Positions 7,785 to 43,100 of a DNA stretch of 45,681 bases are shown here, in pieces. Position numbers and translations under genes: made by a program. The notes beneath the pieces are model-generated. The model was given only the letters and a program-made list of their open reading frames with translations. It made no database searches and had not been told where the DNA came from. This DNA is from a virus (Duplodnaviria > Heunggongvirae > Uroviricota > Caudoviricetes). Where the stretch lies: IMG/VR virus record IMGVR_UViG_2563366991_000003. One strand, given 5' to 3'. Positions within the stretch are counted from its first letter, which is position 1. Each line of letters opens with the position of its first letter.

Positions 7785-7907
7785 TGCTTAATATTCTCCT
7801 ATGCTCATTGCATTAGGCAATCCCTACTCTCATTGTATTAGGCATAGCCTATTGACATTTGTATTAGGCGTCGCCTAATATCTCTGTGTGTTTTTGGAGT
7901 TCATTCG
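7785..7907. promoter_or_regulatory. Divergent racR/ydaS promoter-operator region
   Basis: Perfect 19-bp palindrome TATTAGGCGTCGCCTAATA (7862-7880) and imperfect copy TATTAGGCATAGCCTATT (7836-7853); TTGACA at 7852-7857 with TAATAT at 7876-7881 (18-bp spacer) overlaps the palindrome; RBS GGAG before the ydaS ATG. Confidence 0.5.
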
Positions 7908-8204
7908 ATGAAAAAAGAGAACTATTCATTCAAGCAAGCTTGTGCTGTTGTCGGTGGGCAAACAGCAATGGCTAGGCTTTTAGGTGTATCACCTCCAAGC
8001 GTAAATCAATGGATCAAAGGGGTACGTCAATTGCCTGCCGAGAGATGTCCAGCAATTGAACGTGCAACAAGAGGTGAGGTGCTGTGCGAAGAACTTCGTC
8101 CTGATATTGACTGGTCATATTTACGACGTTCGGCATGTTGTTCGCAGAATATGTCAGTGAAGCAACTAAATGACAGTAACAAATCCTCATTTGATCATAC
8201 CTGA
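7908..8204 (+). CDS. ydaS: Cro-like HTH regulator YdaS
   Basis: 98-aa ORF with an HTH region (MARLLGVSPPSVNQW); divergent from racR. Confidence 0.8.
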   Translation: MKKENYSFKQACAVVGGQTAMARLLGVSPPSVNQWIKGVRQLPAERCPAIERATRGEVLCEELRPDIDWSYLRRSACCSQNMSVKQLNDSNKSSFDHT

Positions 8205-8226
8205 AACATCAAGAGGCAAATGATTC

Positions 8227-8649
8227 ATGAAAATCAAGCATGAGCACATCGAATCGGTGTTGTTTGCCCTGGCAGCCGAAAAAGGGCAGGCATGGGTAGC
8301 CAATGCAATTACTGAAGAATATCTGCGCCAGGGGGGCGGCGAATTGCCCCTGGTTCCAGGCAAGGACTGGAACAATCAGCAGAATATCTATCACCGTTGG
8401 TTGAAAGGTGAAACGAATGCGCAAAGGGAAAAAATTCAGAAGCTGATCCCAGCAATTCTGGCAATCCTTCCGCGCGAGCTGCGTCACCGACTCTGCATCT
8501 TCGATACCCTGGAACGCCGTGCATTACTGGCGGCGCAGGAAGCGTTAAGTACGGCAATTGATGCGCATGATGATGCAGTCCAAGCCGTTTACCGGAAAGC
8601 GCATTTCAGCGGCGGCGGGTCTTCCGACGATTCTGTCATTGTTCATTAA
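8227..8649 (+). CDS. ydaT: YdaT (CII-like / toxin-like partner of YdaS)
   Basis: 140-aa ORF directly downstream of ydaS; recalled Rac YdaT. Confidence 0.75.
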   Translation: MKIKHEHIESVLFALAAEKGQAWVANAITEEYLRQGGGELPLVPGKDWNNQQNIYHRWLKGETNAQREKIQKLIPAILAILPRELRHRLCIFDTLERRALLAAQEALSTAIDAHDDAVQAVYRKAHFSGGGSSDDSVIVH

Positions 8650-8661
8650 GCAAAAGTTTTC

Positions 8662-9519
8662 ATGCTGTTTGTGCTTATTCTAAGCCACCGGGCAGCATCA
8701 TACGGGGCAATTATGGCCGCATTACCATACATGCAACTGTACATAGCTGATTACCTGGCTGACACCATGCATTTGTCAGCAGAGGAGCATGGTGCGTATT
8801 TGTTGCTGATGTTCAATTACTGGCAAACAGGAAAGCCAATACCTAAAAACAGGCTGGCAAAAATTGCCCGTCTGACTAACGAGCGATGGGCTGATGTTGA
8901 ACCATCCTTGCAGGAGTTTTTTTGCGATAACGGCGAGGAATGGGTGCATCTTCGGATTGCGGAAGATCTGGCATCAGTCAGGGAAAAATTAACCAAAAAA
9001 TCAGCCGCAGGAAAAGCATCTGTTCAGGCCAGAAGAAGCAGAAAGGAAGCAGATGTTCAAACAAAACAAGAGAGAAATTTAACAGGTGTTCAAACAGATG
9101 TTGAAGTGGTGTTTGAACATGATGTCAACACAAAGGCAACTAATAAAGATACAGATAAAGATCTAAAAACAGATCCCCCCCTAAATCCCCCCCGGGGGAA
9201 TCGAGGTGTCAAAAAGTTTGACCCTCTGGATATTGCTTTGCCGAACTGGATTTCTGTCTCGCTTTGGCGTGAGTGGGTTGAATTTCGCCAGGCATTGCGA
9301 AAACCGATTCGAACGGAGCAGGGCGCTAACGGGGCGATACGGGAGCTGGAAAAATTCCGCCAGCAGGGTTTTTCACCTGAGCAGGTGATTAGACACAGCA
9401 TCGCCAATGAATACCAGGGCTTGTTCGCGCCGAAAGGTGTTCGACCTGAGACGTTACTCCGACAGGTTAACACCGTCTCGTTACCGGATAGTGCGATCCC
9501 GCCAGGCTTCAGGGGGTAA
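8662..9519 (+). CDS. ydaU: Replication initiation protein YdaU (O-like, DUF1376); alternative start near 8713
   Basis: Position upstream of the DnaC-like gene; sequence MAALPYMQLYIADYLADTMHLSAEEHGAYLLLMFNYW recalled from YdaU. Confidence 0.7.
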   Translation: MLFVLILSHRAASYGAIMAALPYMQLYIADYLADTMHLSAEEHGAYLLLMFNYWQTGKPIPKNRLAKIARLTNERWADVEPSLQEFFCDNGEEWVHLRIAEDLASVREKLTKKSAAGKASVQARRSRKEADVQTKQERNLTGVQTDVEVVFEHDVNTKATNKDTDKDLKTDPPLNPPRGNRGVKKFDPLDIALPNWISVSLWREWVEFRQALRKPIRTEQGANGAIRELEKFRQQGFSPEQVIRHSIANEYQGLFAPKGVRPETLLRQVNTVSLPDSAIPPGFRG

Positions 9520-9525
9520 CTGTCC

Positions 9526-11696: not shown

Positions 11697-12851
11697 ATGG
11701 ATTATTTATCAGAAGTGTTAAAAATCATTGAAGGTGCAACAAAGGCAAATGCTTCGATGGCTAGTAATTATGCTGGGTTGCTGGCAGATAAGCTCGAACA
11801 AAAAGGGGAGGTCAAGCAAGCCAGAATGATAAGAGAAAGGTTGCTTAGAGCTCCCCAGGCGTTGGCAGGAGCTCAAAGGGCTGGAGGTGGGATATCTCTG
11901 GGCTCATTACCGGTAGATATTGATAGTCGACTCAACACTGTTGATGTCAGTTATCCTAAATTAGACAGTTCAGAGATTTTTCTGCCTGCAGCAATCAGTA
12001 CCCGTGTTGAAGAGTTTATCACTAATGTTCAACGTTATGATGAGTTTGTTAAAGCTGATGCAGCATTGCCGAGTCGTATGCTCGTGTATGGAAAGCCAGG
12101 AACAGGTAAGACTATGTTATCTAAGTACATCGCTACCCGCTTAGATTTTCCACTTCTTACAGTGCGTTGCGATACTTTGATTAGTAGTTTATTGGGACAA
12201 ACCAGCAAAAATCTTAGACAGGTTTTCGATTATGTAATGCAGAGGCCATCAGTGCTTTTTTTAGACGAATTTGATGCTTTAGCTGGAGCAAGAGGTAATG
12301 AGAGAGATATAGGTGAGCTTCAGCGAGTTGTCATTTCACTATTGCAGAATATGGATGCGGCATCAGAGGATACGGTAATTATTGCCTCAACTAACCATGA
12401 GCAACTTCTGGATCCTGCAATCTGGAGGCGATTTAGCTTCAGAATTCCAATGCCTCTGCCTGACATACATCAGAGAGAGTTAATTTGGAAAAATCGTTTA
12501 AAGAATATGATATGTAGCGATCTAGATTTAAGTGATTTATCAAGAAAATCGGAAGGATTATCCGGAGCAATAATTGAACAGGTGAGCTTGGATGCACGTA
12601 GGGATGCAGTTATTGAAGGTGCAAGTGTGATAAATCACCATAAATTGTATAGGCGTTTGTATCTTGCTCAATCGCTTATGGAAGGTGTAAATTTAAGCAC
12701 TTACGAAGATGAAATTCGTTGGTTACGTTCTAAAGATAAAAAATTATTTTCTATCAGAGTTCTTGCTAATTTGTACAAACTTACATCAAGAGTAATTTCA
12801 AACATTCTGAAGGAGTCAGGAGCATATGAGCAGAAGGGGTACACAGTTTAG
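11697..12851 (+). CDS. AAA+ ATPase (IetA-like candidate)
   Basis: Walker A VYGKPGTGKT, Walker B VLFLDEFD, sensor-1 ASTNH, Arg-finger-like RRF; AT-rich codon usage distinct from flanking genes; GGGAG RBS. Confidence 0.85.
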   Translation: MDYLSEVLKIIEGATKANASMASNYAGLLADKLEQKGEVKQARMIRERLLRAPQALAGAQRAGGGISLGSLPVDIDSRLNTVDVSYPKLDSSEIFLPAAISTRVEEFITNVQRYDEFVKADAALPSRMLVYGKPGTGKTMLSKYIATRLDFPLLTVRCDTLISSLLGQTSKNLRQVFDYVMQRPSVLFLDEFDALAGARGNERDIGELQRVVISLLQNMDAASEDTVIIASTNHEQLLDPAIWRRFSFRIPMPLPDIHQRELIWKNRLKNMICSDLDLSDLSRKSEGLSGAIIEQVSLDARRDAVIEGASVINHHKLYRRLYLAQSLMEGVNLSTYEDEIRWLRSKDKKLFSIRVLANLYKLTSRVISNILKESGAYEQKGYTV

Positions 12852-13713
12852 TAACGCAAAAGTTACAAACCCAATGTTAAGAATCCCTTTTTCCAGTAGT
12901 GACTTGGGTGCAATAGTAAACGCTGGCGGTGGGGCAAAGGTATTGGTTGATGTAACAGCCGAATATAGACAAGGGCTAGTAAGAAATTTAACAACCAGTA
13001 AACATTATTTAGAATCCAAACTTTCAGAGTACCCTGGAAGCTTGGGTACTTTGGTTTTCAAATTAAGAGACCAGGGAATAGCCAAAACGCATAGGCCGAA
13101 CAAAATTGCTCAAGAGGCTGGATTGCAAAATGCCGGTCATGCCAAAATAGATGAAATGTTGGTTGCTGCTCATGCCGGCTGTTTTGACGTATTAGAGTCA
13201 GTCATTTTACATCGGAATATTAAAGCGATTTTGGCTAATCTAAGCGCGATTGAGCGCATTGAACCTTGGGATGAGAATAGGAAGGTTCCAGGAGGCACTG
13301 ATGGTTTGTTTGAATCATCAAACATCCTTGTACGACTATTTGAGTACACAGGTGAAGATGCAACTTACAACAACTATGAAAACGTTATTTCTATATTAGA
13401 ACAACACGGAGTTAAATATGATGAGATTAGACAAAAATGTGGTCTTCCCTTATTAAGGATAATGGATTTATCCCCAAATGATAGATATATATTAGACATT
13501 CTCATTGATTACCCGGGTATAAGAACGTTAATTCCTGAACCAAAATATTCAGCATTCCCGGTTAGTGTAAGTGATTCTGTTGGCATTGAAACAAATAGCT
13601 TTCCCGTACCATCAGAAGAATTACCCATTGTTGCTGTATTTGACACTGGGGTAAGCCCCATCGCGGCAACAATTACTCCTTGGGTAGTGAGGGTAATGAC
13701 TCCAACTTATTGA
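12826..13713 (+). pseudogene. S8 subtilisin-like serine protease, N-terminal fragment (IetS-like candidate) ending in IS1
   Basis: Start overlaps the ATPase stop by 26 nt with an AGGAG RBS; contains the catalytic Asp motif AVFDTGV just before the IS1 junction; the last 7 codons read into IS1. Confidence 0.8.
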
Positions 13714-14210
13714 TAGTGTTTTATGTTCAGATAATGCCCGATGACTTTGTCATGCAGCTCCACCGATTTTGAGAACGACAGCGACTTCCGTCCCAGCCGT
13801 GCCAGGTGCTGCCTCAGATTCAGGTTATGCCGCTCAATTCGCTGCGTATATCGCTTGCTGATTACGTGCAGCTTTCCCTTCAGGCGGGATTCATACAGCG
13901 GCCAGCCATCCGTCATCCATATCACCACGTCAAAGGGTGACAGCAGGCTCATAAGACGCCCCAGCGTCGCCATAGTGCGTTCACCGAATACGTGCGCAAC
14001 AACCGTCTTCCGGAGCCTGTCATACGCGTAAAACAGCCAGCGCTGGCGCGATTTAGCCCCGACATAGCCCCACTGTTCGTCCATTTCAGCGCAGACAATC
14101 ACATCACTGCCCGGCTGTATGCGCGAGGTTACCGACTGCGGCCTGAGTTTTTTAAGTGACGTAAAATCGTGTTGAGGCCAACGCCCATAATGCGGGCTGT
14201 TGCCCGGCAT
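13707..14210 (-). CDS. insB: IS1 InsB (made as InsAB' by frameshift)
   Basis: 167-aa ORF overlapping the insA 3' end in another frame, inside IS1. Confidence 0.9.
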
Positions 14211-14404
14211 CCAACGCCATTCATGGCCATATCAATGATTTTCTGGTGCGTACCGGGTTGAGAAGCGGTGTAAGTGAACTGCAGTTGCCATGTTTTACGG
14301 CAGTGAGAGCAGAGATAGCGCTGATGTCCGGCGGTGCTTTTGCCGTTACGCACCACCCCGTCAGTAGCTGAACAGGAGGGACAGCTGATAGAAACAGAAG
14401 CCAC
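14129..14404 (-). CDS. insA: IS1 InsA
   Basis: 91-aa ORF with Cys-rich zinc finger and HTH, inside IS1. Confidence 0.9.
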
Positions 14405-14459
14405 TGGAGCACCTCAAAAACACCATCATACACTAAATCAGTAAGTTGGCAGCATCACC

Positions 14460-15867
14460 GGTAGTGAGTAGGGAAACATACGTAATTCCTCCTGATACGA
14501 GTTATGAACATGGGACTATGGTGTCTTCATTGATATCAGGCGCTCATTTTTTAAATGACAATCATCCATGGATTCCTGATACAAAATCTAAAATCCATGA
14601 TGTTTGTGCCTTAGATGAAAATGGATCTTATATATCAGATTTAATTCTGAGGCTAGCAGATGCTGTAAATAAAAGACCAGATATAAAAGTCTGGAATTTG
14701 TCTTTGGGAGGCGGACCATGTAATGAGCAGACGTTTAGTGATTTTGCGATGGAGTTAGATCGGCTCAGCGATAAATTTGGTATTTTGTTTGTAGTTGCTG
14801 CAGGTAATTATGTAGATGAACCTATACGTACATGGCCAAATCCTGATCCGCTTGGAGGTGCTGATTTAATTTCCTCTCCTGGAGAGTCAGTCCGAGCACT
14901 AACAGTTGGTTCAGTTTCTCATATGGAAGCTAATGATGCTTTAAGTGAAATTGGAACACCGACACCATATACTCGTCGTGGCCCTGGGCCTGTATTTACT
15001 CCAAAGCCAGATATAATCCATGCTGGCGGTGGGGTTCATAGACCTTGGAATGTAGGAGCAAGCAGTTTAAAGGTCGTAGGGCCAGATAATAGGCTTTGCT
15101 CTAATTTTGGTACTAGTTTTGCTGCTCCAATTGTGGCAAGTTTAGCTGCGCATACATGGCAGAGAATAGCCACTAATACAGACTTTAATGTTTCACCATC
15201 ATTGATTAAAGCATTATTAATTCATTCCGCTCAATTATCTTCTCCTGATTACTCGCCAAGTGAAAGACGCTATTTGGGAGCGGGAATTCCTAATGAAGTT
15301 ATTGAGACCTTATATGATAGTGATGATAGGTTTACTCTGATTTTCCAAACATTCTTGGTTCCTGGGGTGAGGTGGAGAAAGGATAACTATCCCATACCAT
15401 CGGCACTTATTCAAAATGGAAAATTTAAAGGTGAGATTGTAATTACTGCTGCATATGCACCACCACTGAACCCTAATGCCGGCAGTGAATATGTTCGCGC
15501 GAACGTAGAGCTAAGTTTTGGCTTAATTGAGAATAATACTATAAAAGGAAAAGTGCCTATGGAAGGAGAAAACGGTCAATCTGGATATGAGAGAGCTCAA
15601 ATTGAGCATGGTGGAAAGTGGTCACCAGTAAAAATTCATCGCAAGGCATTTAATAAAGGAATTACTTCGGGTAACTGGGCTCTTCAGGCTAAAACAACGT
15701 TGAGAGCGAATGAACCGGCCTTAATGGAGCCTTTACCTGTAACTATTGTAGTAACTTTAAAATCATTAGATGGAAACACACAAGTTTATGCTGATGGCGT
15801 AAGAGCTTTAAATGCTAATAACTGGGCTCACTATCCATTGCCTGCTCGTGTGCCAGTTTCCGTATAA
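14460..15867 (+). pseudogene. S8 subtilisin-like serine protease, C-terminal fragment
   Basis: Same frame as the N-terminal fragment once IS1 and one repeat copy are removed (..TPWVV|SRETYVIPP..); His motif HGTMVSS, Ser motif GTSFAAP, and VAAGNY oxyanion region. Confidence 0.8.
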
Positions 15868-15881
15868 CAACTATATAAATC

Positions 15882-15910
15882 AAACCCGCTGTAGCGGGTT
15901 TGATTTATTT
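15882..15910 (+). terminator. Rho-independent terminator after the protease gene
   Basis: aacccgc-tgta-gcgggtt hairpin followed by a T-rich tract. Confidence 0.5.
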
Positions 15911-16280
15911 GTGGGTGTGTTTTATAAAAATACCGCCCATACACAACAAAATACAAAAAGTATTATAGATAAAAAAGGAACGTAATGTGCAGATTTGTTG
16001 TTTTCCATATTTACTCACCTTAATATGATTAACCCTGATAGGGTTGTTATTTCAGCGGTTTTCAAATGAGATATTATGGTGATCTGGCAGATTTGCATAA
16101 CATTAAAATTTAATTTGTTTAACCGCTTTTAATAATAAGCGTTGTTTGTATCCCAGCAATCTGTTTTTTGGTTTTTATTCCATTAAGGTGGGGCTTTACA
16201 CTGGAGCCAGTTTATTTATACTTCATACGTCAGCCTGAACAACTGGCATCTGCTGCGCTGCGCCATCGAGAGATTAAGAA

Positions 16281-16880
16281 ATGGCGCATATACAACTGGT
16301 CAAACAAACCTCTTCCGGATTACTTCTCCCGGCGACGCCGGAGAGTTGTGATTTTCTGCATCAAATCAAAATAGGCGAGTGGATACACGCAGACTTTAAG
16401 CGTGTGCGTAACTACGCATTCCACAAGCGTTTTTTCAAACTCCTGCAACTGGGATTCGATTACTGGACTCCGGTCGGTGGGGCGATCACGCCTCGCGAAC
16501 GAGAACTGCTGTCTGGTTTCGTTGATTACCTGTGCGAATCAGTTGGTCGGGAACACACGCCAGCCCTGAGTGATGCCGCAGAGCAATATCTGAATACAGT
16601 TGCGACACGCAGAACCCGGGATACGGCATTGCTAAAGTCGTTTGAGGCTTTTCGCGAGTGGGTAACCATTCAGGCTGGATTTTACACCGAACATTTTTAT
16701 CCGGACGGTAGCCGCGGGCGTCGGGCAAAATCTATCGCTTTTGCGAATATGGACGAAACCGAGTTTCAGCAGGTTTATAAATCTGTTCTGAATGTGCTGT
16801 GGAACTGGATTCTGTTCCGTAAATTTTCCTCTCCGGAACAAGTCGAAAATGTGGCCGCGCAGCTGCTGGAGTTTGCGTAA
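16281..16880 (+). CDS. Nin-region protein (DUF1367-like)
   Basis: 199-aa ORF between the replication and Q modules; family assignment from recall only. Confidence 0.45.
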   Translation: MAHIQLVKQTSSGLLLPATPESCDFLHQIKIGEWIHADFKRVRNYAFHKRFFKLLQLGFDYWTPVGGAITPRERELLSGFVDYLCESVGREHTPALSDAAEQYLNTVATRRTRDTALLKSFEAFREWVTIQAGFYTEHFYPDGSRGRRAKSIAFANMDETEFQQVYKSVLNVLWNWILFRKFSSPEQVENVAAQLLEFA

Positions 16881-18062: not shown

Positions 18063-18138
<76 letters not shown>

Positions 18139-18141
18139 TAT

Positions 18142-18216
<75 letters not shown>

Positions 18217-20164: not shown

Positions 20165-20301
20165 AATCTTAACTACAATATGATTCATTTTGATGATTGT
20201 TTCATAAGGAACAGTGAAGTAAGATCTAAGAGGAGTTAAATTTTATACAGTATAATCATAATATTGCAGCAAGGTGGTTATAATTGAAAGAATATTTAGA
20301 T

Positions 20302-21759
20302 ATGAATACATCTCATGTAAGAGTTGTTACTCATATGTGTGGGTTCCTGGTTTGGCTCTATAGTCTTTCAATGTTGCCACCAATGGTTGTAGCATTGTTT
20401 TATAAAGAAAAAAGCCTGTTCGTTTTCTTTATAACTTTCGTTATATTTTTTTGCATTGGTGGCGGAGCGTGGTATACAACTAAGAAATCTGGCATTCAAT
20501 TACGTACCCGTGATGGGTTTATTATAATTGTAATGTTTTGGATTTTGTTTTCTGTTATTAGTGCATTCCCTTTATGGATTGACTCAGAACTTAATTTAAC
20601 GTTCATTGATGCTCTGTTTGAAGGGGTTTCTGGAATAACAACAACAGGAGCAACTGTAATTGATGATGTTAGTTCATTACCTCGGGCATATTTGTACTAT
20701 CGGTCACAGTTAAATTTTATAGGTGGTTTAGGAGTTATTGTTCTGGCGGTTGCTGTATTGCCATTATTGGGTATTGGTGGTGCAAAGCTTTATCAGTCAG
20801 AAATGCCGGGGCCATTTAAGGATGACAAACTCACTCCCCGCCTGGCCGATACGTCACGGACACTGTGGATAACTTATTCTTTATTAGGTATTGCTTGTAT
20901 TGTCTGTTATAGACTTGCAGGAATGCCTTTGTTTGATGCTATTTGTCACGGGATTTCCACAGTTTCGCTTGGTGGTTTCTCAACTCATAGCGAGAGTATC
21001 GGATATTTTAATAACTATTTGGTTGAGCTGGTGGCTGGTTCTTTTTCCCTGCTATCGGCTTTCAACTTCACTCTTTGGTATATTGTTATTAGCAGGAAAA
21101 CGATAAAACCTTTAATCAGAGATATTGAACTTCGTTTCTTTCTGTTAATAGCCTTAGGGGTGATCATTGTTACCTCTTTCCAGGTCTGGCATATAGGTAT
21201 GTATGACTTGCATGGAAGTTTTATTCATTCGTTTTTTCTTGCCAGCTCCATGCTCACTGATAATGGTTTAGCTACGCAGGATTATGCAAGTTGGCCCACG
21301 CACACGATAGTGTTTTTGCTGTTGTCAAGTTTCTTTGGGGGATGTATAGGTTCAACTTGTGGTGGAATTAAGTCACTTCGATTTCTTATACTTTTCAAAC
21401 AAAGCAAACACGAGATAAATCAGCTTTCTCATCCCAGAGCGTTGTTGAGTGTAAATGTAGGAGGGAAGATAGTTACAGATCGTGTAATGAGGTCTGTATG
21501 GAGTTTCTTTTTTCTTTATACTCTCTTCACGGTGTTTTTTATACTGGTGTTAAATGGTATGGGATATGATTTTCTTACATCATTTGCAACAGTGGCTGCA
21601 TGTATTAATAATATGGGATTAGGTTTTGGGGCTACTGCATCGTCATTCGGAGTGCTTAATGACATTGCAAAATGTTTAATGTGCATAGCTATGATTCTTG
21701 GTCGCCTTGAAATTTATCCTGTTATTATATTGTTTTCAGGTTTTTTTTGGCGCTCCTAA
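20302..21759 (+). CDS. trkG: TrkG potassium uptake protein (Trk family membrane transporter)
   Basis: Polytopic membrane protein with repeated pore-loop GxG motifs (TTTGATV, GLGVIV); matches recalled Rac TrkG starting MNTSHVRVVTHMCGF. Confidence 0.9.
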   Translation: MNTSHVRVVTHMCGFLVWLYSLSMLPPMVVALFYKEKSLFVFFITFVIFFCIGGGAWYTTKKSGIQLRTRDGFIIIVMFWILFSVISAFPLWIDSELNLTFIDALFEGVSGITTTGATVIDDVSSLPRAYLYYRSQLNFIGGLGVIVLAVAVLPLLGIGGAKLYQSEMPGPFKDDKLTPRLADTSRTLWITYSLLGIACIVCYRLAGMPLFDAICHGISTVSLGGFSTHSESIGYFNNYLVELVAGSFSLLSAFNFTLWYIVISRKTIKPLIRDIELRFFLLIALGVIIVTSFQVWHIGMYDLHGSFIHSFFLASSMLTDNGLATQDYASWPTHTIVFLLLSSFFGGCIGSTCGGIKSLRFLILFKQSKHEINQLSHPRALLSVNVGGKIVTDRVMRSVWSFFFLYTLFTVFFILVLNGMGYDFLTSFATVAACINNMGLGFGATASSFGVLNDIAKCLMCIAMILGRLEIYPVIILFSGFFWRS

Positions 21760-21896
21760 TATATGGCTGATTTATAATTGTGAGTTTAATATTATGTTGA
21801 CTCACTCATTGATCCAATACCTAACTTTACCAGCAACCCCTCCGTCCCCAGTAGCACTGGCTGCTGGGGTGCGTTTTATTCATAAAGCAAGGCTGT

Positions 21897-22688
21897 ATGA
21901 GCGAGAAATTAAAGATAGTCTATCGCCCATTACAAGAATTGTCACCGTATGCGCACAACGCCAGGACGCACAGCCCTGAGCAGGTGGCACAACTGGTAGA
22001 AAGTATTAAGCAATTCGGCTGGACTAATCCGGTGCTGATTGACGAAAAGGGCGAAATTATTGCGGGTCACGGTCGTGTTATGGCGGCTGAAATGCTCAAA
22101 ATGGATTCTGTTCCGGTCATTGTTCTGTCTGGCCTGACGGATGAGCAGAAAAAGGCGTACCGCCTGGCAGATAATCGCCTGCCGATGAATGCTGGCTGGG
22201 ATGAAGATCTGTTGCGGATGGAGCTGTCGGACCTAATCAATGCTGATTTTGATGTCTCCCTGACAGGCTTCATCCCGACAGAAATTGATGAACTGTTGAC
22301 GGATGTTTTGCCCGGTACAGGAAATGAGGAGGAGCCGTATACGACGAAAATTGATACGCCTGTTTATGAGCCGTCGGGCGGTAAACCGGATATCAGTGAA
22401 CTGTACGACGATACGAAAACTCAGGAGCTGATCAGCCGGATACGTTCGGCGTCCCTTGAGCCTGATATTGAGAAATTCCTCCTGTGTGCGGCAGAACGTC
22501 ACACGGTGTTTAATTTCAGCAGAATTGCGGACTATTACGCTCACGCCCCCTCTGAAATTCAGTGTTTTTTCGAGGAGTCGGCGCTGGTGATCATTGATTA
22601 TCAGCAGGCTATTGAAAATGGATTTGTCCGGATGACGCAGCGCATGGTGGAGATCATGCATGGTGGTGAGGAGGAGGAATATGCGTGA
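21897..22688 (+). CDS. ParB-like nuclease domain protein (ynaK-like)
   Basis: N-terminal ParB/Srx-like motifs (AGHGRV, RLADNRL); located just upstream of the packaging genes. Confidence 0.65.
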   Translation: MSEKLKIVYRPLQELSPYAHNARTHSPEQVAQLVESIKQFGWTNPVLIDEKGEIIAGHGRVMAAEMLKMDSVPVIVLSGLTDEQKKAYRLADNRLPMNAGWDEDLLRMELSDLINADFDVSLTGFIPTEIDELLTDVLPGTGNEEEPYTTKIDTPVYEPSGGKPDISELYDDTKTQELISRIRSASLEPDIEKFLLCAAERHTVFNFSRIADYYAHAPSEIQCFFEESALVIIDYQQAIENGFVRMTQRMVEIMHGGEEEEYA

Positions 22689-23613
22689 TGATTTTTGCGC
22701 CTTTATTCTGACTCACGGGCGACCGGACAAAGTTCTGACTTACCGGACGTTGCGTCGTGCTGGCTATACCGGGAAAATTTTTATCGTTGTTGATGATGAA
22801 GATAAGACACGGAATCAGTACATGGCTGAATTTGGTGAACAGGTGCTGGTGTTTTCCAAAGCCGATATCGCCAGTCGTTTTGACGAAGCCGATAATTTCT
22901 GTGACCGCCGCTCAATTTTTTACGCCCGTAATGCCTGTTTCGACCTGGCAAAACTGGTCGGGTGTAAATACTTCATTCAGCTCGATGATGATTATCACGA
23001 GTTCCAGTTTCGGGTGGATCGCAACTATGACCAGGCCTATTTTCCGATAAGGAAACTGGATGCGATCCTTTCTGAAATGCTGGCGTACTACGAATCAATA
23101 CCTGCTCTTTCCATCGCTATGTCGCAGGGCGGGGATTTTCTTGGTGACAATGGCGGCCATGCTTCGTGGGTGAAACGCAAGGCAATGAACAGCTTTATCT
23201 GTTCGGTTGATCGACCGTTCTCATTCATGGGGCGCATTAACGAGGATGTGAATACGTACACGAATCTCGGTCGCTGTGGTGAATTGTTTATGACGATCGG
23301 TGCTGTCCAGTTAGGGCAGAAACAGACGCAGAAAAACAGCGGCGGAATGACCGAGCTGTATCTGGATTCCGGAACCTACGTTAAAAGTTTTTACTCCGTC
23401 ATGTATGCGCCGTCGTGCGTAAAAATCTCACTGATGGGTGCCAGCCATAAACGCATTCACCATCAGGTCACCTGGAACAACGCTGCAGTAAAAATCCTTC
23501 ACGAAAAATACAGGAAGAAGACACCCTGCATATCAATGGGGGTGACAAATGATTCCGTATTCGAAAGTCGAGTCTCTGGCAGCGTGCCGGATGACTGCAC
23601 AACAAATCGCTGA
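22681..23613 (+). CDS. Hypothetical protein, possibly a GT-A-like transferase fold
   Basis: Start overlaps the ParB-like stop by 8 nt with a GAGGAGGA RBS; acidic DxD-like motifs VVDDED and QLDDDYHEF; no firm family assignment. Confidence 0.45.
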   Translation: MRDDFCAFILTHGRPDKVLTYRTLRRAGYTGKIFIVVDDEDKTRNQYMAEFGEQVLVFSKADIASRFDEADNFCDRRSIFYARNACFDLAKLVGCKYFIQLDDDYHEFQFRVDRNYDQAYFPIRKLDAILSEMLAYYESIPALSIAMSQGGDFLGDNGGHASWVKRKAMNSFICSVDRPFSFMGRINEDVNTYTNLGRCGELFMTIGAVQLGQKQTQKNSGGMTELYLDSGTYVKSFYSVMYAPSCVKISLMGASHKRIHHQVTWNNAAVKILHEKYRKKTPCISMGVTNDSVFESRVSGSVPDDCTTNR

Positions 23614-23800
23614 CGTTCTGGATGTTGATCTGAACCGACTGAAAGAAAATCGGGAAGCAATGACAGATTTTTATGCGGCCATCCGTAAGGGCAGAGCGAA
23701 AGGTGAAGCCGAGTTACGAGCGGCATTGTTTAAGCTTGCCAGAAAAGGGGATGCCTTTGCTCTGCGCGAACTACTCAGGGTGGATAAAAATCAGGACTAA
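23591..23800 (+). CDS. Small helical hypothetical protein upstream of the small terminase
   Basis: Fills the gap between 23613 and 23804; MTAQQIADVLDV... HTH-like; low confidence. Confidence 0.3.
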   Translation: MTAQQIADVLDVDLNRLKENREAMTDFYAAIRKGRAKGEAELRAALFKLARKGDAFALRELLRVDKNQD

Positions 23801-23803
23801 CTG

Positions 23804-24898
23804 ATGAGCAGACCGGACTGGGGGGCGTTGCAGCAGGAGTATATTGCTGAATACACCCGCTCCGGTATATCTCCGGTGGCATGGTGTGAAGCAAGGGGAC
23901 TGAATTACGCAACAGCCCGTCGTTACATCAAAAAAACTCCGAAAAATGCGCAGACAGAAATGTGCAAAACTGCGCAAAAAAGTGCGCAGAAAAAATCTGC
24001 GCAGACTGCACAAAAGCGGAACGAAAAATCTCAGGAAAAAAAGCCAGTATTCGATGCGGGCCTGAATGAGGGCGACGCGGAGGAATTTTCGTTCTGTCCC
24101 GATGAATTCGGCATTTCTGACCAGCAGGCTAAGTTTGCGATGCTTGTTGCTCAGGGTAAAAAGCCGACAGAGGCGTACCGACTAGCCGGTTATGAGGGGC
24201 AAGGTGCGACAGCTAACAGCAACGCCAGTCGTATGCTTAGAAATGCCAGGGTTTTTCGCGCTATCAGCTACTTCCGCAATCAGTACCAGAAACGCTATAC
24301 CGCAGACCTGGATTTACTAGTGAGTCAGTTGATGGCTATTGTCCTGGCCGACCCCAATCAGCTTGCACAATTTCGCCGTGTTAACTGCCGTTATTGCTGG
24401 GGCGAGAATCATCTCTACCAGTGGCGCGATATAGCAGAATTCGACAAGGCAGCGGCGCAGGCTTCCAGAGATGGCAAACCCGAACCGGAATATGGAGGCC
24501 TCGGCTTTGTTGATAACGCCATACCCAATCCGGACTGCCCGAAGTGCTGCGGTGAGGGAACGGGACAGCTTTATATGGCTGATACCACTCTGCTTGATGG
24601 GGATGCGCGGCAATTATATGCAGGGGCAAAATTCGGAAAATTCGGCGTTGAGATCCTGCTGGAGGATAAGGCTGCCGCCCGGCGTGAATTGTTGCGTTTG
24701 CTTTCTGCTGGCGGGGATTTATGTGCAGATAAGCGGCTACAGGAACTGGAAATTGAACGGCGCAGAATGGAAAACCAGAAGCTGCGCAAAGAGATCGAAA
24801 CGGTGGAAGATAATGAACATCCCCAGCCTGTGGCGATCAATATTAATGTGGTTGATGCCAGAGTAAGGAGTGATGAAGATGATCTCTCCGACGCTTAA
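23804..24898 (+). CDS. Terminase small subunit (putative)
   Basis: N-terminal HTH-like segment (WCEARGLNYATARRYIKK); directly upstream of and overlapping the large terminase. Confidence 0.55.
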   Translation: MSRPDWGALQQEYIAEYTRSGISPVAWCEARGLNYATARRYIKKTPKNAQTEMCKTAQKSAQKKSAQTAQKRNEKSQEKKPVFDAGLNEGDAEEFSFCPDEFGISDQQAKFAMLVAQGKKPTEAYRLAGYEGQGATANSNASRMLRNARVFRAISYFRNQYQKRYTADLDLLVSQLMAIVLADPNQLAQFRRVNCRYCWGENHLYQWRDIAEFDKAAAQASRDGKPEPEYGGLGFVDNAIPNPDCPKCCGEGTGQLYMADTTLLDGDARQLYAGAKFGKFGVEILLEDKAAARRELLRLLSAGGDLCADKRLQELEIERRRMENQKLRKEIETVEDNEHPQPVAININVVDARVRSDEDDLSDA

Positions 24899-37767: not shown

Positions 37768-38098
37768 TACGGAAGAATTTCACTGGTTACCAGAGGATGG
37801 AATGAAAACAGAAAATAAACCATCGATAAAAACTGTAAGATTTGGCGATGGTTATGAGCAACGAAGTCCAAATGGACTTAATCATTCTCTGCGCGTTTTC
37901 ACCTGTGATTTCAAAGTTGAGGCGAATGAACGTGATTCATTTGAAAAATTTTTAGCCCGGCATGAAGGCTATAAATCTTTTTTTTGGCGCCCGCCTGGTA
38001 TTAACAGAAAAATCAGAGTGGTGTGTCGAACGTGGTCAGCGACAGAACATATCACCTATACCGATTTTTCGTGTCAGTTTGACGAAGTGGTGATCTGA
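37760..38098 (+). CDS. Minor tail protein M (lambda gpM-like); likely ATG start at 37802
   Basis: VRFGDGYEQRSPNGLN and C-terminal FDEVV match the recalled lambda M pattern. Confidence 0.75.
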   Translation: MANTEEFHWLPEDGMKTENKPSIKTVRFGDGYEQRSPNGLNHSLRVFTCDFKVEANERDSFEKFLARHEGYKSFFWRPPGINRKIRVVCRTWSATEHITYTDFSCQFDEVVI

Positions 38099-38796
38099 TG
38101 CAGGACATACAACAGGAAACGCTGAATGAATGCATTCGTGCGGAGCAGTCGGCCAGCGTGGTGCTCTGGGAAATCGACCTGACCGAGGTAGGCGGGGATC
38201 GCTACTTTTTCTGCAATGAGCAGAACGAGAAAGGAGAGTCTGTCACCTGGCAGAGTCGGCAGTATCAGGCCTATCCCATTCAGGGGAGTGGATTTGAGAT
38301 GAACGGCAAAGGTGCCAGTGCAAGGCCAACGCTGAAAGTCTCTAATCTGCACGGCATGGTCACCGGGATGGCGGAAGACCTGCAGAGTCTGGTCGGCGGA
38401 ACGGTGGTCAGGCGTAAGGTTTACGCCCGTTTTCTGGATGCGGTGAACTTCGTCAACGGAAACAGTGACGCCGATCCGGAGCAGGAGGTGATCAGCCGCT
38501 GGCGTATTGAGCAGTGCAGCGAACTGAGCGCGGTCAGTGCCTCCTTTGTACTGTCCACGCCGACGGAAACGGACGGCGCTGTTTTTCCGGGGCGCATCAT
38601 GCTTGCTAATACCTGCACCTGGACCTATCGCGGTGATGAGTGCGGTTATCACGGTCCGGCGGTCGCGGATGAATATGACCAGCCGACATCCGAAATCACG
38701 AAGGATAAATGCAGCAAATGCCTGAGTGGCTGTAAGTTCCGCAATAATGTCGGCAACTTTGGCGGCTTCCTTTCCATTAACAAACTTTCGCAGTAA
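38098..38796 (+). CDS. Minor tail protein L (lambda gpL-like)
   Basis: 232-aa ORF with C-terminal Cys cluster (CSKCLSGCKF); start overlaps the M stop. Confidence 0.85.
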   Translation: MQDIQQETLNECIRAEQSASVVLWEIDLTEVGGDRYFFCNEQNEKGESVTWQSRQYQAYPIQGSGFEMNGKGASARPTLKVSNLHGMVTGMAEDLQSLVGGTVVRRKVYARFLDAVNFVNGNSDADPEQEVISRWRIEQCSELSAVSASFVLSTPTETDGAVFPGRIMLANTCTWTYRGDECGYHGPAVADEYDQPTSEITKDKCSKCLSGCKFRNNVGNFGGFLSINKLSQ

Positions 38797-38801
38797 ATCC
38801 C

Positions 38802-39545
38802 ATGACAGAGACAGAATCAGCGATTCTGGCGCACGCCCGGCGATGTGCGCCAGCGGAGTCGTGCGGCTTCGTGGTGAGAACGTCGGAAGGGGAAAGATAT
38901 TTTCCCTGCGTGAATATCTCCGGTGAGCCGGAGGAGTATTTCCGGATGTCGCCGGAGGACTGGCTGCGGGCAGAGATGCAGGGTGAGATTGTGGCGCTGG
39001 TCCACAGCCACCCCGGTGGTATGCCCTGGCTGAGTGAGACCGACCGGCGGCTGCAGGTGCAGAGTGATTTGCCGTGGTGGCTGGTTTGCCGGGGAGCGAT
39101 TCACAAGTTCCGCTGTGTGCCACATCTTTCCGGGCGGCGCTTTGAGCACGGGGTGACGGACTGTTACACGCTGTTCCGGGATGCTTACCATCTGGCGGGG
39201 ATTGAGATGCCGGATTTTCATCGCGAGGATGACTGGTGGCGTAACGGTCAGAATCTCTATCTGGATAATCTGGAGGCCACAGGGCTGTATCAGGTGCCGT
39301 TGTCAGCGGCGCAGCCGGGCGATGTGCTGCTGTGCTGTTTTGGTTCATCGGTGCCGAATCATGCCGCCATTTACTGTGGTGACAGCGAGCTGCTGCACCA
39401 TATTCCTGAACAACTGAGTAAACGAGAGAGGTACACCGACAAATGGCAGCGACGCACACACTCCCTCTGGCGTCACCGGGCATGGCACGCATCTGCCTTT
39501 ACGGGGATTTACAACGATTTGGCCGCCGCATCGACCTTCGAGTGA
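38802..39545 (+). CDS. Tail assembly protein K (lambda gpK-like; MPN/JAB plus NlpC/P60 domains)
   Basis: HSHPGG..SETD JAB-type motif and Cys/His peptidase region. Confidence 0.85.
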   Translation: MTETESAILAHARRCAPAESCGFVVRTSEGERYFPCVNISGEPEEYFRMSPEDWLRAEMQGEIVALVHSHPGGMPWLSETDRRLQVQSDLPWWLVCRGAIHKFRCVPHLSGRRFEHGVTDCYTLFRDAYHLAGIEMPDFHREDDWWRNGQNLYLDNLEATGLYQVPLSAAQPGDVLLCCFGSSVPNHAAIYCGDSELLHHIPEQLSKRERYTDKWQRRTHSLWRHRAWHASAFTGIYNDLAAASTFE

Positions 39546-40090
39546 AAACGGGGTCCGAAGCCATCCGGGCGCTGGCCATGCAGATCCCGGCGTTTCGTCA
39601 GAAACTGAGCGACGGCTGGTATCAGGTACGCATTGCCGGGCGTGATGCAGGTGAAACTGAATTATCAGCCCGTCTTAATGAACCGCTGGCAAATGGTGCC
39701 GTGATCCACATTGTGCCGCGTCTGGCGGGAGCCAAAAGTGGCGGTCTTTTTCAGGCTGTGCTGGGGGCGGCGCTGATTGCGGTGGCATGGTGGAACCCTG
39801 CAGGTTGGTTGGGGGCTGCCGCAATTACAGGAATGTATGGTGCGGGGGCCAGTATGGTGCTCGGTGGTGTGGCGCAGATGCTGGCACCGAAAGCCAGAAC
39901 TCCCCGTACACAGACAACGGATAACGGCAAACAGAACACCTATTTCTCCTCACTGGATAACATGGTTGCCCAGGGCAATGTTCTGCCGGTTCTGTACGGT
40001 GAAATGCGCGTGGGGTCACGGGTGATTTCGCAGGAGATCAGCACGGCAGATGAAGGAGATGGTGGTCAGGTTGTGGTGATTGGTCGTTGA
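39443..40090 (+). CDS. Tail assembly protein I (lambda gpI-like)
   Basis: Near-match to recalled lambda I (MAATHTLPLASPGMARICLYGDLQRFGRRIDLRVKTG...); overlaps the K 3' end. Confidence 0.8.
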   Translation: MAATHTLPLASPGMARICLYGDLQRFGRRIDLRVKTGSEAIRALAMQIPAFRQKLSDGWYQVRIAGRDAGETELSARLNEPLANGAVIHIVPRLAGAKSGGLFQAVLGAALIAVAWWNPAGWLGAAAITGMYGAGASMVLGGVAQMLAPKARTPRTQTTDNGKQNTYFSSLDNMVAQGNVLPVLYGEMRVGSRVISQEISTADEGDGGQVVVIGR

Positions 40091-40150
40091 TGCAGAATGT
40101 TTTGTGTGAAACCGCCTCAGGGCGGTTTTGTCGTTTCTGGAGCGTGAGGA

Positions 40151-43100
40151 ATGGGTAAAGGCAGCAGTAAGGGGCATATCCCGCGCGAAGCGAAGGACAA
40201 CCTGAAATCATCCCAGATGCTGAGCGTGATAGACGCCATCAGTGAAGGGCCGATTGAAGGTCCGGTGGATGGATTAAAAAGCGTGCTGCTGAACAGTACG
40301 CCGGTGCTGGACAGTGAGGGGAATACCAATATCTCCGGCGTCACGGTGGTGTTCCGGGCAGGTGAGCAGGAGCAGTCACCGCCGGAGGGATTTGAATCCT
40401 CCGGTTCCGAGACGGTGCTGGGTACGGAAGTGAAATATGAAACGCCGATCACCCGGACCATCACGTCGGCAAACATCGACCGTCTGCGCTTTACCTTCGG
40501 TGTACAGGCACTGGTGGAAACCACCTCAAAGGGAGACAGGAATCCGTCGGAAGTCCGCCTGCTGGTTCAGATACAGCGTAACGGTGGCTGGGTGACGGAA
40601 AAAGACATCACCATTAAGGGCAAAACCACCTCGCAGTATCTGGCCTCGGTGGTGGTGGATAACCTGCCGCCGCGCCCGTTCAATATCCGGATGCGCAGGA
40701 TGACGCCGGACAGCACCACAGACCAGCTGCAGAACAAAACGCTCTGGTCGTCATACACCGAGATCATCGATGTGAAACAGTGCTACCCGAACACGGCACT
40801 GGTCGGCGTACAGGTGGACTCGGAGCAGTTCGGCAGCCAGCAGGTGAGCCGTAATTATCATCTTCGCGGGCGCATTCTGCAGGTGCCGTCGAACTATAAC
40901 CCGCAGACGCGACAATACAGCGGTATCTGGGACGGAACGTTAAAACCAGCATACAGCAACAACATGGCCTGGTGTCTGTGGGATATGCTGACCCACCCGC
41001 GCTACGGCATGGGGAAACGTCTTGGTGCGGCGGATGTGGACAAATGGGCGCTGTATGTCATCGGCCAGTACTGCGACCAGTCAGTGCCGGACGGCTTTGG
41101 CGGCACGGAGCCGCGCATCACCTGTAATGCGTACCTGACCACACAGCGCAAGGCGTGGGATGTGCTCAGTGATTTCTGCTCGGCGATGCGCTGTATGCCG
41201 GTATGGAACGGGCAGACGCTGACGTTCGTGCAGGACCGACAGTCGGATAAGGTGTGGACCTATAACCGCAGTAATGTGGTGATGCCGGATGATGGCGCGC
41301 CGTTCCGCTACAGCTTCAGCGCCCTGAAGGACCGCCATAATGCCGTTGAGGTGAACTGGATTGACCCGAACAACGGCTGGGAGACGGCGACAGAGCTTGT
41401 TGAAGATACGCAGGCCATTGCCCGTTACGGTCGTAATGTCACGAAGATGGATGCCTTTGGCTGTACCAGCCGGGGGCAGGCACACCGCGCCGGGCTGTGG
41501 CTGATTAAAACGGAACTGCTGGAAACGCAGACCGTGGATTTCAGCGTGGGCGCAGAAGGGCTTCGCCATGTGCCGGGCGATGTTATTGAAATCTGCGATG
41601 ATGACTATGCCGGTATCAGCACCGGTGGTCGCGTGTTGGCGGTGAACAGCCAGACCCGGACGCTGACGCTCGACCGTGAAATCACGCTGCCATCCTCCGG
41701 TACCACGCTGATAAGCCTGGTTGACGGAAGTGGCAATCCGGTCAGCGTGGAGGTTCAGTCCGTCACCGACGGACTTAAGGTGAAAGTGAATCGGGTTCCT
41801 GACGGCGTTGCAGAATACAGTGTGTGGGGGCTGAAGTTGCCGACGTTGCGTCAGCGCCTGTTCCGCTGTGTGAGTATCCGTGAGAACGATGACGGCACGT
41901 ATGCCATCACTGCCGTGCAGCATGTACCGGAAAAAGAAGCCATCGTGGATAACGGGGCGCACTTTGACGGCGACCAGAGCGGCACGGTGAATGGTGTCAC
42001 GCCGCCAGCGGTGCAGCACCTGACCGCCGAAGTCACCGCAGACAGCGGGGAATACCAGGTGCTGGCGCGCTGGGATACGCCGAAGGTGGTGAAGGGCGTG
42101 AGCTTTATGCTTCGCCTGACCGTGGCAGCGGATGACGGCAGTGAGCGGCTGGTCAGCACGGCCCGGACGACGGAAACCACATACCGCTTCACGCAACTGG
42201 CGCCAGGGAACTACAGGCTGACAGTCCGGGCGGCAAATGCCTGGGGGCAGCAGGGCGATCCGGCATCGGTATCGTTCCGTATTGCCGCACCGGCAGCGCC
42301 GTCGCGGATTGAGCTGACGCCGGGCTATTTTCAGATAACCGCCACGCCCCATCTTGCCGTTTATGATCCGACGGTACAGTTTGAGTTCTGGTTCTCGGAA
42401 AAGCGGATTGCGGATATCAGGCAGGTTGAAACCACAGCCCGCTATCTTGGCACGGCGCTGTACTGGATAGCTGCCAGTATCAATATCAAACCGGGCCATG
42501 ATTATTATTTTTACATCCGCAGTGTGAACACCGTTGGCAAATCGGCATTTGTGGAGGCTGTTGGCCAGCCGAGTGATGATGCATCCGGCTATCTGGATTT
42601 TTTCAAAGGCGAGATAGGGAAAAGCCATCTGGCTCAGGAGCTGTGGACGCAGATTGATAACGGTCAGCTTGCGCCTGACCTGGCTGAAATCAGGACGTCC
42701 ATTACGGATGTCAGCAATGAAATCACGCAGACCGTCAATAAGAAACTGGAAGACCAGAGTGCGGCGATCCAGCAGATACAGAAGGTTCAGGTTGATACAA
42801 ATAATAACCTGAACAGCATGTGGGCTGTGAAGCTGCAGCAGATGCAGGACGGACGCCTTTATATCGCGGGTATTGGTGCCGGTATTGAGAACACCCCTGA
42901 CGGCATGCAGAGTCAGGTGCTGCTGGCGGCGGACAGGATTGCGATGGTTAATCCTGCGAATGGCAACACAAAGCCGATGTTTGTTGGTCAGGGCGATCAG
43001 ATATTCATGAACGAAGTGTTCCTGAAACGCCTGACGGCTCCCACCATTACCAGCGGCGGTAATCCTCCGGCATTTTCCCTGACACCGGACGGGCGGCTGA

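Follow-up and report, generated by a model that had tools for sequence, protein, structure and literature searches.

The TAGT family of glycosyltransferases (Pfam PF20691, 'TET-associated glycosyltransferase') includes the kinetoplastid base-J glucosyltransferase JGT, and its phage members of the GT-A fold glycosylate the 5-hydroxymethylcytosine (5hmC) made by TET-like 5mYOX enzymes (PMC8256090; bioRxiv 10.1101/2023.12.21.572611). About 65% of glycosyltransferase-containing contigs are without a neighbouring base-modifying enzyme and were left uncharacterised (Pyle 2023, bioRxiv 10.1101/2023.12.21.572611). A second class of protein enters with the finding that ParB-like proteins activate phage thymine dioxygenases (ParB-dependent 5mYOX) on double-stranded DNA (O'Toole 2026, PMC13229309). 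Here we describe a gene pair in the virus record IMGVR_UViG_2563366991_000003, ynaK and the glycosyltransferase gene downstream of it, that brings a ParB/Srx-type protein together with a TAGT enzyme. We propose, with evenly balanced confidence, that the pair is a late-expressed two-protein DNA glycosylation module acting on the phage's own nucleic acid, DNA being the presumed acceptor.

The window, by which we mean the whole stretch of DNA analysed (45,681 nucleotides, 45.7 kb), is an intact Rac prophage of Escherichia coli, 100% identical to the chromosomes of several strains from intR at its left end, with the gene order of the Rac prophage of strain SE11. Both genes lie between trkG and the packaging genes on the + strand, as the initial annotation had placed them: full-length ynaK at 21897-22688 (263 aa, WP_001291094.1) and the glycosyltransferase gene at 22681-23613 (310 aa, WP_001204037.1). 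RefSeq names the first ynaK or 'ParB/Srx family N-terminal domain-containing protein' and the second 'hypothetical protein'. Since each has about 8000 scored homologues, neither is a chance open reading frame (ORF), and the pair was found in 1580 of 5426 complete E. coli genomes, 889 of them with at least 80% of it.

The second protein matches Pfam TAGT over profile positions 4-205 of 205, with 121 bits against a cut-off of 27.5 (E 8.4e-35), and phrog_842 with E 1e-103; PF20691 is likewise precomputed on all listed homologues. Its AlphaFold2 model has a GT-A fold with a mean predicted local distance difference test (pLDDT) score of 70.6, residues 1-150 averaging above 84 save for a dip at about 61-80. 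The best solved structures returned by Foldseek are SpsA, AvpGT (in complex with the nucleoside Ara-A), chondroitin polymerase (K4CP), GalNAc-T2 and other GT-A enzymes, with glycogenin among the weaker fold matches; all of these are weak and generic for GT-A (E ~1e-4, template modelling (TM) score ~0.4), and no solved-structure relative was found by sequence. Among viral proteins, the closest structural matches carry a TAGT domain, and a weaker one is a Klebsiella phage PKO111 protein named T-even-type beta-glucosyl-HMC alpha-glucosyltransferase (E 1e-6, 12% identity), and it is to such a weak structural match that phrog_842 owes its PHROG label. No NCBIfam or PADLOC model matches the enzyme, whose core is mildly basic (isoelectric point, pI, 8.6).

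Invariant in the alignment are R14, D38, D41, D102-D103-D104 (the DxD motif) and E188-D189. A set R...DDD...ED(Y/F) has been described for phage GT-A enzymes glycosylating 5hmC and for JGT (bioRxiv 10.1101/2023.12.21.572611), and R14, D102-D104 and E188-D189 correspond to it. The acidic motifs VVDDED and LDDDY(HEF), singled out in the initial annotation, turn out to be D38/D41 and D102-D104, and the nucleotide-sugar transferase-like fold that it had suggested is borne out by the Pfam assignment, the AlphaFold2 model and the Foldseek matches. By sequence and modelled fold, the protein is a GT-A glycosyltransferase of the TAGT family with intact catalytic motifs. It shares with JGT and the phage TAGT enzymes the sequence family, the fold and the R...DDD...ED set, as well as a phage location often near ParB-like and terminase genes. 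Unlike the TET-linked members, it comes with an obligatory partner domain instead of a TET/JBP, cytosine methyltransferase or thymidylate-synthase homologue, none of which was found in the searches given below. The resemblance to the T2/T6-type beta-glucosyl-HMC alpha-glucosyltransferase is one of GT-A fold and weak structural match, but the substrate of that enzyme, glucosylated hydroxymethylcytosine DNA, cannot exist in Rac or in the Lactobacillus phage c5, which carries the same pair.

YnaK, the upstream partner, matches phrog_620 (E 8.5e-91). A ParB/Srx domain with the motifs SIxxxGxxxP and GHGRxxAA occupies its N-terminal ~95 residues, and this nucleotide-binding domain together with a helix-helix segment makes up residues 1-134 (21897-22298, + strand), a region delimited by Pfam ParB_N, phrog_498, PADLOC MTase_II, alignment and the AlphaFold2 model. 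The ParB_N match (PF02195) is marginal, at 28.9 bits against a cut-off of 26.3. Residues 3-141 match the DNA methyltransferase family phrog_498 (E 1.2e-50) and residues 10-144 the PADLOC model MTase_II (E 2.2e-38), in the latter case the ParB module only of a type II methyltransferase model. Box II, G57-H-G-R60-V-M-A63 (GxxRxxA), is conserved, and N21 and S36 were also noted. In the AlphaFold2 model (pLDDT 62.1) the ParB/Srx module and helix-helix segment are followed by residues 137-169, predicted to be disordered (pLDDT <50), and by a helical C-terminal domain, large parts of which also score below 50. The disordered segment contains the linker motif Y148-T-T-K-I-D-T-P155-V-Y157-E158-P (22338-22373, + strand), and the C-terminal domain covers approximately residues 170-255 (AAERHTVFNF ... 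SALVIID ... AIENGF; 22404-22661, + strand).

This architecture is that of the 5mYOX-activating ParB176, as far as its published description allows the comparison (PMC13229309): a nucleotide-binding domain, a helix-helix segment, a disordered linker of ~50 aa and a C-terminal domain. Like the 5mYOX-associated ParBs, YnaK has no DNA-binding domain, conserves N, R, S and R in the nucleotide-binding domain and is encoded beside an enzyme of DNA-modifying type in a phage late region; unlike them, it has a glycosyltransferase and no dioxygenase for a neighbour. With ParB-DNA methyltransferase fusions (phrog_498, MTase_II, ParB_N + N6_N4_Mtase; PMC12704722) it has in common the N-terminal module and an enrichment in prophages, but these fusions join the module to a catalytic domain, whereas in YnaK it is joined to what would be an adaptor domain for a separate enzyme. 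Partition ParBs (Spo0J, SopB, P1 ParB) share the ParB/Srx N-terminal fold and the GxxRxxA box II, but differ in that YnaK is acidic, has no helix-turn-helix domain and has no annotated ParA. The model of YnaK shows no helix-turn-helix element, TIGR00180 parB_part reaches 38.5 bits against a cut-off of 58.45 and covers the N-terminal domain only, and no ParA gene is present among the annotated prophage genes; a partition function was rejected for want of a helix-turn-helix and of ParA. The term 'ParB-like nuclease', under which the protein was first described, is an old Pfam domain name, and a literal nuclease was likewise rejected; the protein is a ParB/Srx protein without a DNA-binding domain.

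Across distant homologues of YnaK, the best conserved parts are the C-terminal domain and the linker, Y-[ST]-x-K-[IV]-x-x-P-x-Y-E-P, the latter with little or no variation between E. coli and a haloarchaeal virus. The gene ahead of the enzyme in Vibrio jumbo phages codes only for the linker motif and the C-terminal domain (139 aa). A profile of the C-terminal region retrieved 1467 proteins at E <= 0.001; among the 120 best, the majority are stand-alone proteins of ~130 aa with no Pfam domain. A form that dispenses with the ParB domain in this way sets YnaK apart from the 5mYOX-associated ParBs. No Pfam family or PDB relative was found for the C-terminal domain. On this pattern of conservation, the module that universally partners the enzyme is made up of the C-terminal domain and the linker motif and does not include the ParB domain.

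The association of the two proteins holds in both directions. Starting from the enzyme, 89 loci were collected, many of them near-identical Rac copies and about 25 divergent (enzyme 56-83% identical), and the partner abuts or overlaps the enzyme gene upstream on the same strand in 88 of them; the one exception has the partner 3 kb upstream. Three enzyme loci sit on contigs of 1-2 kb, and there the partial upstream ORFs match the partner C-terminal domain. Conversely, a search with the partner C-terminal domain alone brought in 80 diverse IMG/VR loci, of which 78 have a TAGT gene within 1.5 kb on the same strand; one more has it at 2.3 kb, and one contig ends 18 nt past the domain. Co-occurrence in other phages was the check that the initial annotation had proposed, and the linkage proved conserved both ways and near-universal, while the searches described here gave no homology to a structural or packaging protein.

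The hosts involved are diverse. In Lactobacillus phage c5 the pair is ORF1 and ORF2, the first genes after cos, and in Lactobacillus phage phi jlb1 the order is ParB, glycosyltransferase, terS and terL. Genes 21 and 22 of Haloarcula virus HHTV-2 and orf1 and orf2 of Nocardia phage NTR1, there followed by terL, are further instances, and the pair also occurs in a Porphyromonas phage and in phages of Proteobacteria. Enzyme identity between viruses of E. coli, Lactobacillus, Nocardia and a haloarchaeon is 40-47%. The enzyme evolves more slowly than its partner, with 83% against 62% identity to Rac on what is apparently the same Klebsiella oxytoca contig. Fusion of the ParB domain to the glycosyltransferase was not seen, the long representatives carrying other domains; a single 381-aa protein joins part of the partner C-terminal domain to the enzyme, on one contig, and may be a frameshift. 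In GenBank (ON470581 and related records, NC_019449, NC_021340) the partner is labelled 'chromosome (plasmid) partitioning protein' or 'ParB-like partition nuclease' and the enzyme 'beta-glucosyl-HMC-alpha-glucosyltransferase'. Neither label suits the proteins described here, and the enzyme name is a case of annotation transfer.

The start of the glycosyltransferase gene bears on how the two genes are expressed. There are two in-frame ATGs, of which the first, at 22660, is the start of the mechanically called ORF (317 aa) and the second, at 22681, gives 310 aa. All 25 homologues compared (59-82% identity) start at the second ATG, with MRDDFCAFILTHGRP, and a Shine-Dalgarno sequence, GGAGGAGG, precedes it at 22670-22677; 22681 is therefore the true start, on the strength of the homologue N-termini, the RefSeq call and the Shine-Dalgarno. 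The ynaK stop codon, TGA, occupies 22686-22688 and the two genes overlap by 8 nt (ATGCGTGA, 22681-22688). The initial annotation had reported both a protein of 317 aa and an overlap of 8 nt, which cannot hold together: the overlap is real and the length is not. An overlap of this kind implies translational coupling, and the whole coupling junction (Shine-Dalgarno, ATG and ynaK stop) extends over 22670-22688 on the + strand. The last ~29 residues of the enzyme (282-310, window 23527-23613) are not conserved, and their coding sequence overlaps a small ORF (69-83 aa, window 23549-23800) similar to an internal stretch of a small terminase (phrog_309). With the RefSeq start this ORF is 69 aa long (23591-23800, + strand); it lies outside the pair and marks its boundary. 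Ahead of the 364-aa TerS, the small-terminase region may be mosaic or have been split.

Upstream, a sequence scan found a terminator-like hairpin (21846-21869, + strand; 10 pairs, 7 of them G-C, and a T-rich tail) 3' of the trkG moron and 28 nt ahead of ynaK. Its probable role is to insulate the pair in the lysogen, with the antiterminated late transcript reading through it, although the hairpin is known from its match to the consensus only.

Genomic context separates two forms of the pair. Downstream of the ParB-bearing pair, in Rac as in 17 divergent loci, come terminases that belong to at least four Pfam types (Terminase_6, TerL_ATPase, Terminase_3 and GpA). When the loci seeded with the C-terminal domain are divided by partner, 14 of the 27 with a full ParB-bearing partner adjoin a recognisable terminase and none a DNA polymerase, while among the 53 with a short partner 30 are beside DNA polymerase A, 31 beside a sliding clamp and 10 next to a terminase. 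A Pfam census of 12 short-partner loci gave 17 hits to TAGT, frequently as tandems of two or three, and nine to DNA_pol_A, along with clamp, clamp loader, primase, RecA, RecU and cytidylyltransferase-like genes. The position just upstream of the terminase genes, on which the initial annotation had remarked, is consequently a property of the ParB-bearing form and does not extend to the short form in replication modules. In many large phages (IMG/VR, metagenome contigs) the short-partner pair sits between the DNA polymerase A and sliding-clamp genes, and at some of these loci cytidylyltransferase-like, PARG-like and dGTP-diphosphohydrolase-like genes are nearby.

Additional enzymes, of kinds found in DNA hypermodification clusters, accompany the pair as fusions or as neighbours. 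At some loci the glycosyltransferase is fused to a S-adenosylmethionine (SAM) methyltransferase, a sulfotransferase, a P-loop kinase-like domain (Walker A GASCAGKS) or a second TAGT domain, and variant neighbourhoods include a GT-B enzyme, extra glycosyltransferases and sugar-nucleotide enzymes. The fusions and the tandem TAGT genes point to a decorated or multi-sugar product. A radical SAM enzyme stands beside the pair at seven of 80 loci, its lambda-like and large-phage copies being 52% identical, and gives only generic MoaA/SPASM-like matches; it could make the acceptor or tailor the sugar without oxygen.

The enzyme family, the type of ParB module, the contexts, the host range and the tailoring enzymes together make a nucleic acid, likely DNA, the target that we favour, and a wide host range combined with high sequence conservation fits a universal substrate. 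To these are added the late-operon position and the coupled translation of the pair. Of the functions offered by the initial annotation, a DNA modification or anti-restriction pair or else a packaging accessory, DNA modification is the best supported, whereas the short form and its replication modules speak against the packaging role.

In the mechanism that we envisage for a DNA glycosylation module, the JGT-like GT-A enzyme would take a sugar from a nucleotide-sugar donor, with catalysis relying on a DxD-bound metal and the R...DDD...ED active-site set, and the obligatory acidic partner would bind the enzyme by its C-terminal domain and linker motif. In the Rac form, the ParB/Srx domain would add a nucleotide-dependent dimerising or clamping function, a role modelled on the ParB-like activators of phage thymine dioxygenases, and this clamping might activate the enzyme or hold it on double-stranded DNA ahead of packaging. 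The outcome would be sugar-modified DNA able to escape nucleases in the next host. We infer DNA as the acceptor, the protein complex, the loading or activation by ParB and the protection from nucleases by analogy with these systems. The role of a 'DNA clamp' is not secure, given an acidic partner and a dispensable ParB domain.

A number of observations weigh against this proposal. The bases of ordinary DNA carry no hydroxyl group. To our knowledge every characterised DNA glycosyltransferase needs a hydroxyl-bearing base, provided by thymidylate-synthase homologues before replication or by TET/JBP dioxygenases after it, and we know of no GT-fold enzyme that glycosylates unmodified DNA. The Rac annotation contains no TET/JBP dioxygenase, no cytosine methyltransferase plus dioxygenase and no thymidylate-synthase-like hydroxymethylase, and the whole 31.8-kb genome of phage c5 has none of these enzymes either. 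None of them, TET_JBP included, appears in the neighbour tables with precomputed Pfam hits or among the 25 commonest families listed in each of two censuses (29 loci), where a single rare match may hide. No ThyA-like ORF was returned by jackhmmer from 2.29 Mb (190 loci), a weak negative given that the E. coli ThyA query is approximate, and no report of sugar-modified DNA in Rac-type phages was found. With no phage-encoded hydroxylase or hydroxymethylase found, the acceptor should be something other than phage-made 5hmC or 5-hydroxymethyluracil (5hmU). The ways out may be a new acceptor (N or O of a canonical base, a DNA end, a host-made lesion or modification), a non-DNA acceptor or a precursor enzyme that escaped detection. 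One version of the first, in which enzyme and partner put the sugar straight on unmodified DNA (canonical base, backbone or end) with no prior hydroxylation, we regard as doubtful.

The partner and the structural evidence contribute further points to the same side. YnaK is acidic in every domain (pI 4.5) and is not an obvious DNA binder, and the structure models are of moderate to low confidence (pLDDT 70.6 for the glycosyltransferase and 62.1 for YnaK). Some distant partners lack the box II arginine and most short forms have no ParB domain, so nucleotide switching is not essential to the core function. Finally, family membership does not by itself imply DNA: GREB1, a TAGT-family member, is reported to be a protein O-GlcNAc transferase (PMC7968844).

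GREB1 is the precedent for what seems to us the best-surviving of the rival explanations, if still a rather unlikely one, namely that the enzyme glycosylates a virion or packaging protein (terminase, portal or capsid) and that the ParB-like protein is its adaptor. In Rac and in many siphoviruses the pair does head the morphogenesis operon, and one locus has further Glycos_transf_2 genes past the capsid gene. Virion glycosylation is, moreover, known in mycobacteriophages. A protein target is nevertheless difficult to reconcile with the short form, whose place between DNA polymerase and sliding clamp is distant from the structural genes, or with an enzyme that remains 40-47% identical among viruses of E. 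coli, Gram-positive bacteria and archaea with no sequence relationship between their virion proteins; the ParB domain, besides, is of the type fused to DNA methyltransferases.

The conservation of the linker allows another explanation, in which the partner is itself the acceptor: the Tyr/Thr motif (Y148-T-x-K...P-x-Y157-E-P) would be glycosylated in the manner of glycogenin self-priming, and the glycoprotein would be the functional product. This would account for a motif that is invariant across domains of life though predicted to be disordered, and that travels with the enzyme even where there is no ParB domain, and it agrees with the presence of glycogenin among the weaker fold matches. A docking peptide would equally give a conserved short motif, however, and the glycoprotein would have no evident function, on which grounds we find the idea improbable.

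We give no more credence to a small molecule or RNA as the substrate (a nucleotide, a nucleoside, a host-defence signalling nucleotide or a tRNA base), a prospect raised by the AvpGT-Ara-A complex among the best solved matches, by the lack of any encoded precursor of a DNA acceptor and by the cytidylyltransferase-like and dGTP-diphosphohydrolase-like genes near the pair in some large phages. The fold matches are nonetheless of the weak and generic GT-A kind noted above, and a partner of the ParB type, common to DNA methyltransferases and dioxygenases, would be hard to explain. The characterised viral and kinetoplastid members act on DNA in the papers cited here.

A role in prophage defence, in which the pair would hyper-glycosylate the hydroxymethylated DNA of superinfecting phages such as T-even phages, or otherwise mark foreign DNA, and so benefit the lysogen, follows a possibility raised for prophage-encoded glycosyltransferases by Pyle et al. 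(bioRxiv 10.1101/2023.12.21.572611). It has the attraction that the invader would supply the 5hmC, and Rac does carry other defence cargo (IteAS in the window, a DUF262 protein in SE11). We consider it very unlikely all the same, as the pair stands behind a terminator-like hairpin in the late operon and not in the lysogen-expressed moron slot, occurs in free-phage genomes unlike lysogens and in the replication modules of large phages, and gives no PADLOC match for the enzyme.

A non-catalytic packaging accessory, made up of a ParB-like protein that marks pac or cos for the terminase and a glycosyltransferase-like structural cofactor, is scarcely credible: the pair does adjoin terS/terL in most temperate siphoviruses and directly follows cos in c5, but all catalytic residues are invariant, four unrelated terminase types follow the pair, the partner is acidic and lacks a DNA-binding domain, and the short form in replication modules, away from terminases, argues against it. 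Conversion of a cell-surface glycan was rejected in view of the replication and packaging contexts and of the 40-47% identity across viruses of unrelated hosts.

The remainder of the window follows the order known for Rac: recombination and immunity, replication, a defence moron, Q-like genes, lysis, trkG (20284-21759), the ynaK/glycosyltransferase pair, terS (23804-24898), terL (ending at 26180), portal, head and tail. The cargo of the moron slot differs between prophages; in SE11 (7843-9525 of SE11 Rac) it consists of a DUF262 (GmrSD-like) protein and a TPR protein, and at 12697-16860 of the window of IteA/IteS, an anti-phage system whose S8 peptidase is iteS. Here iteS is split by an IS1 element of 768 bp (InsA and InsB ORFs; window 13692-14459) flanked by a 9-bp target duplication, an insertion absent from the otherwise identical prophages of other strains. 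At 18063-18216, past the Q-like genes and ahead of the lysis cassette, are two tRNA genes, tRNA-Thr (TGT) and tRNA-Gly (TCC). The G+C content is 0.55-0.59 at window 38001-43000, by position the tail tip and tail fibre region, and ~0.45 elsewhere in the prophage.

As to what is new, the TAGT family, ParB genes in hypermodification clusters and the activating role of ParB-like proteins are already published. We found nothing in the literature on the function of ynaK and no paper characterising a TET-less ParB/TAGT pair, though the 2013 paper by Iyer and colleagues (NAR), which is reported to have defined TAGT, might mention it. Undescribed in the literature that we found are the existence of the TET-less pair as a discrete module with near-universal linkage, the role of the C-terminal domain and linker as partner with a stand-alone form, and the split between terminase-proximal ParB-bearing forms and short forms in replication modules.

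In this pair a genuine JGT/TAGT enzyme is maintained by strong selection in small phages whose genomes are fully sequenced and have no known hydroxylation step. Either it acts on an acceptor on DNA that is not yet known, or an enzyme family of the DNA type also serves a non-DNA purpose connected with replication and packaging, and both answers would be new. The question is a tractable one, with the pair available in the Rac prophages of many sequenced E. coli, in deposited coliphages placed by the E. coli search as Rac-type prophage DNA and in the dairy phage c5. Our analysis corrects the misleading database names of both proteins and extends the finding of ParB-like cofactors for DNA-modifying enzymes; for a TAGT enzyme, the part of such a cofactor that matters would, going by conservation, be the C-terminal domain and the linker motif. 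Should the sugar prove to be placed on unmodified DNA, this would be a DNA modification undescribed for any GT-fold enzyme, found in roughly one in six complete E. coli genomes as well as in bacterial and archaeal viruses.

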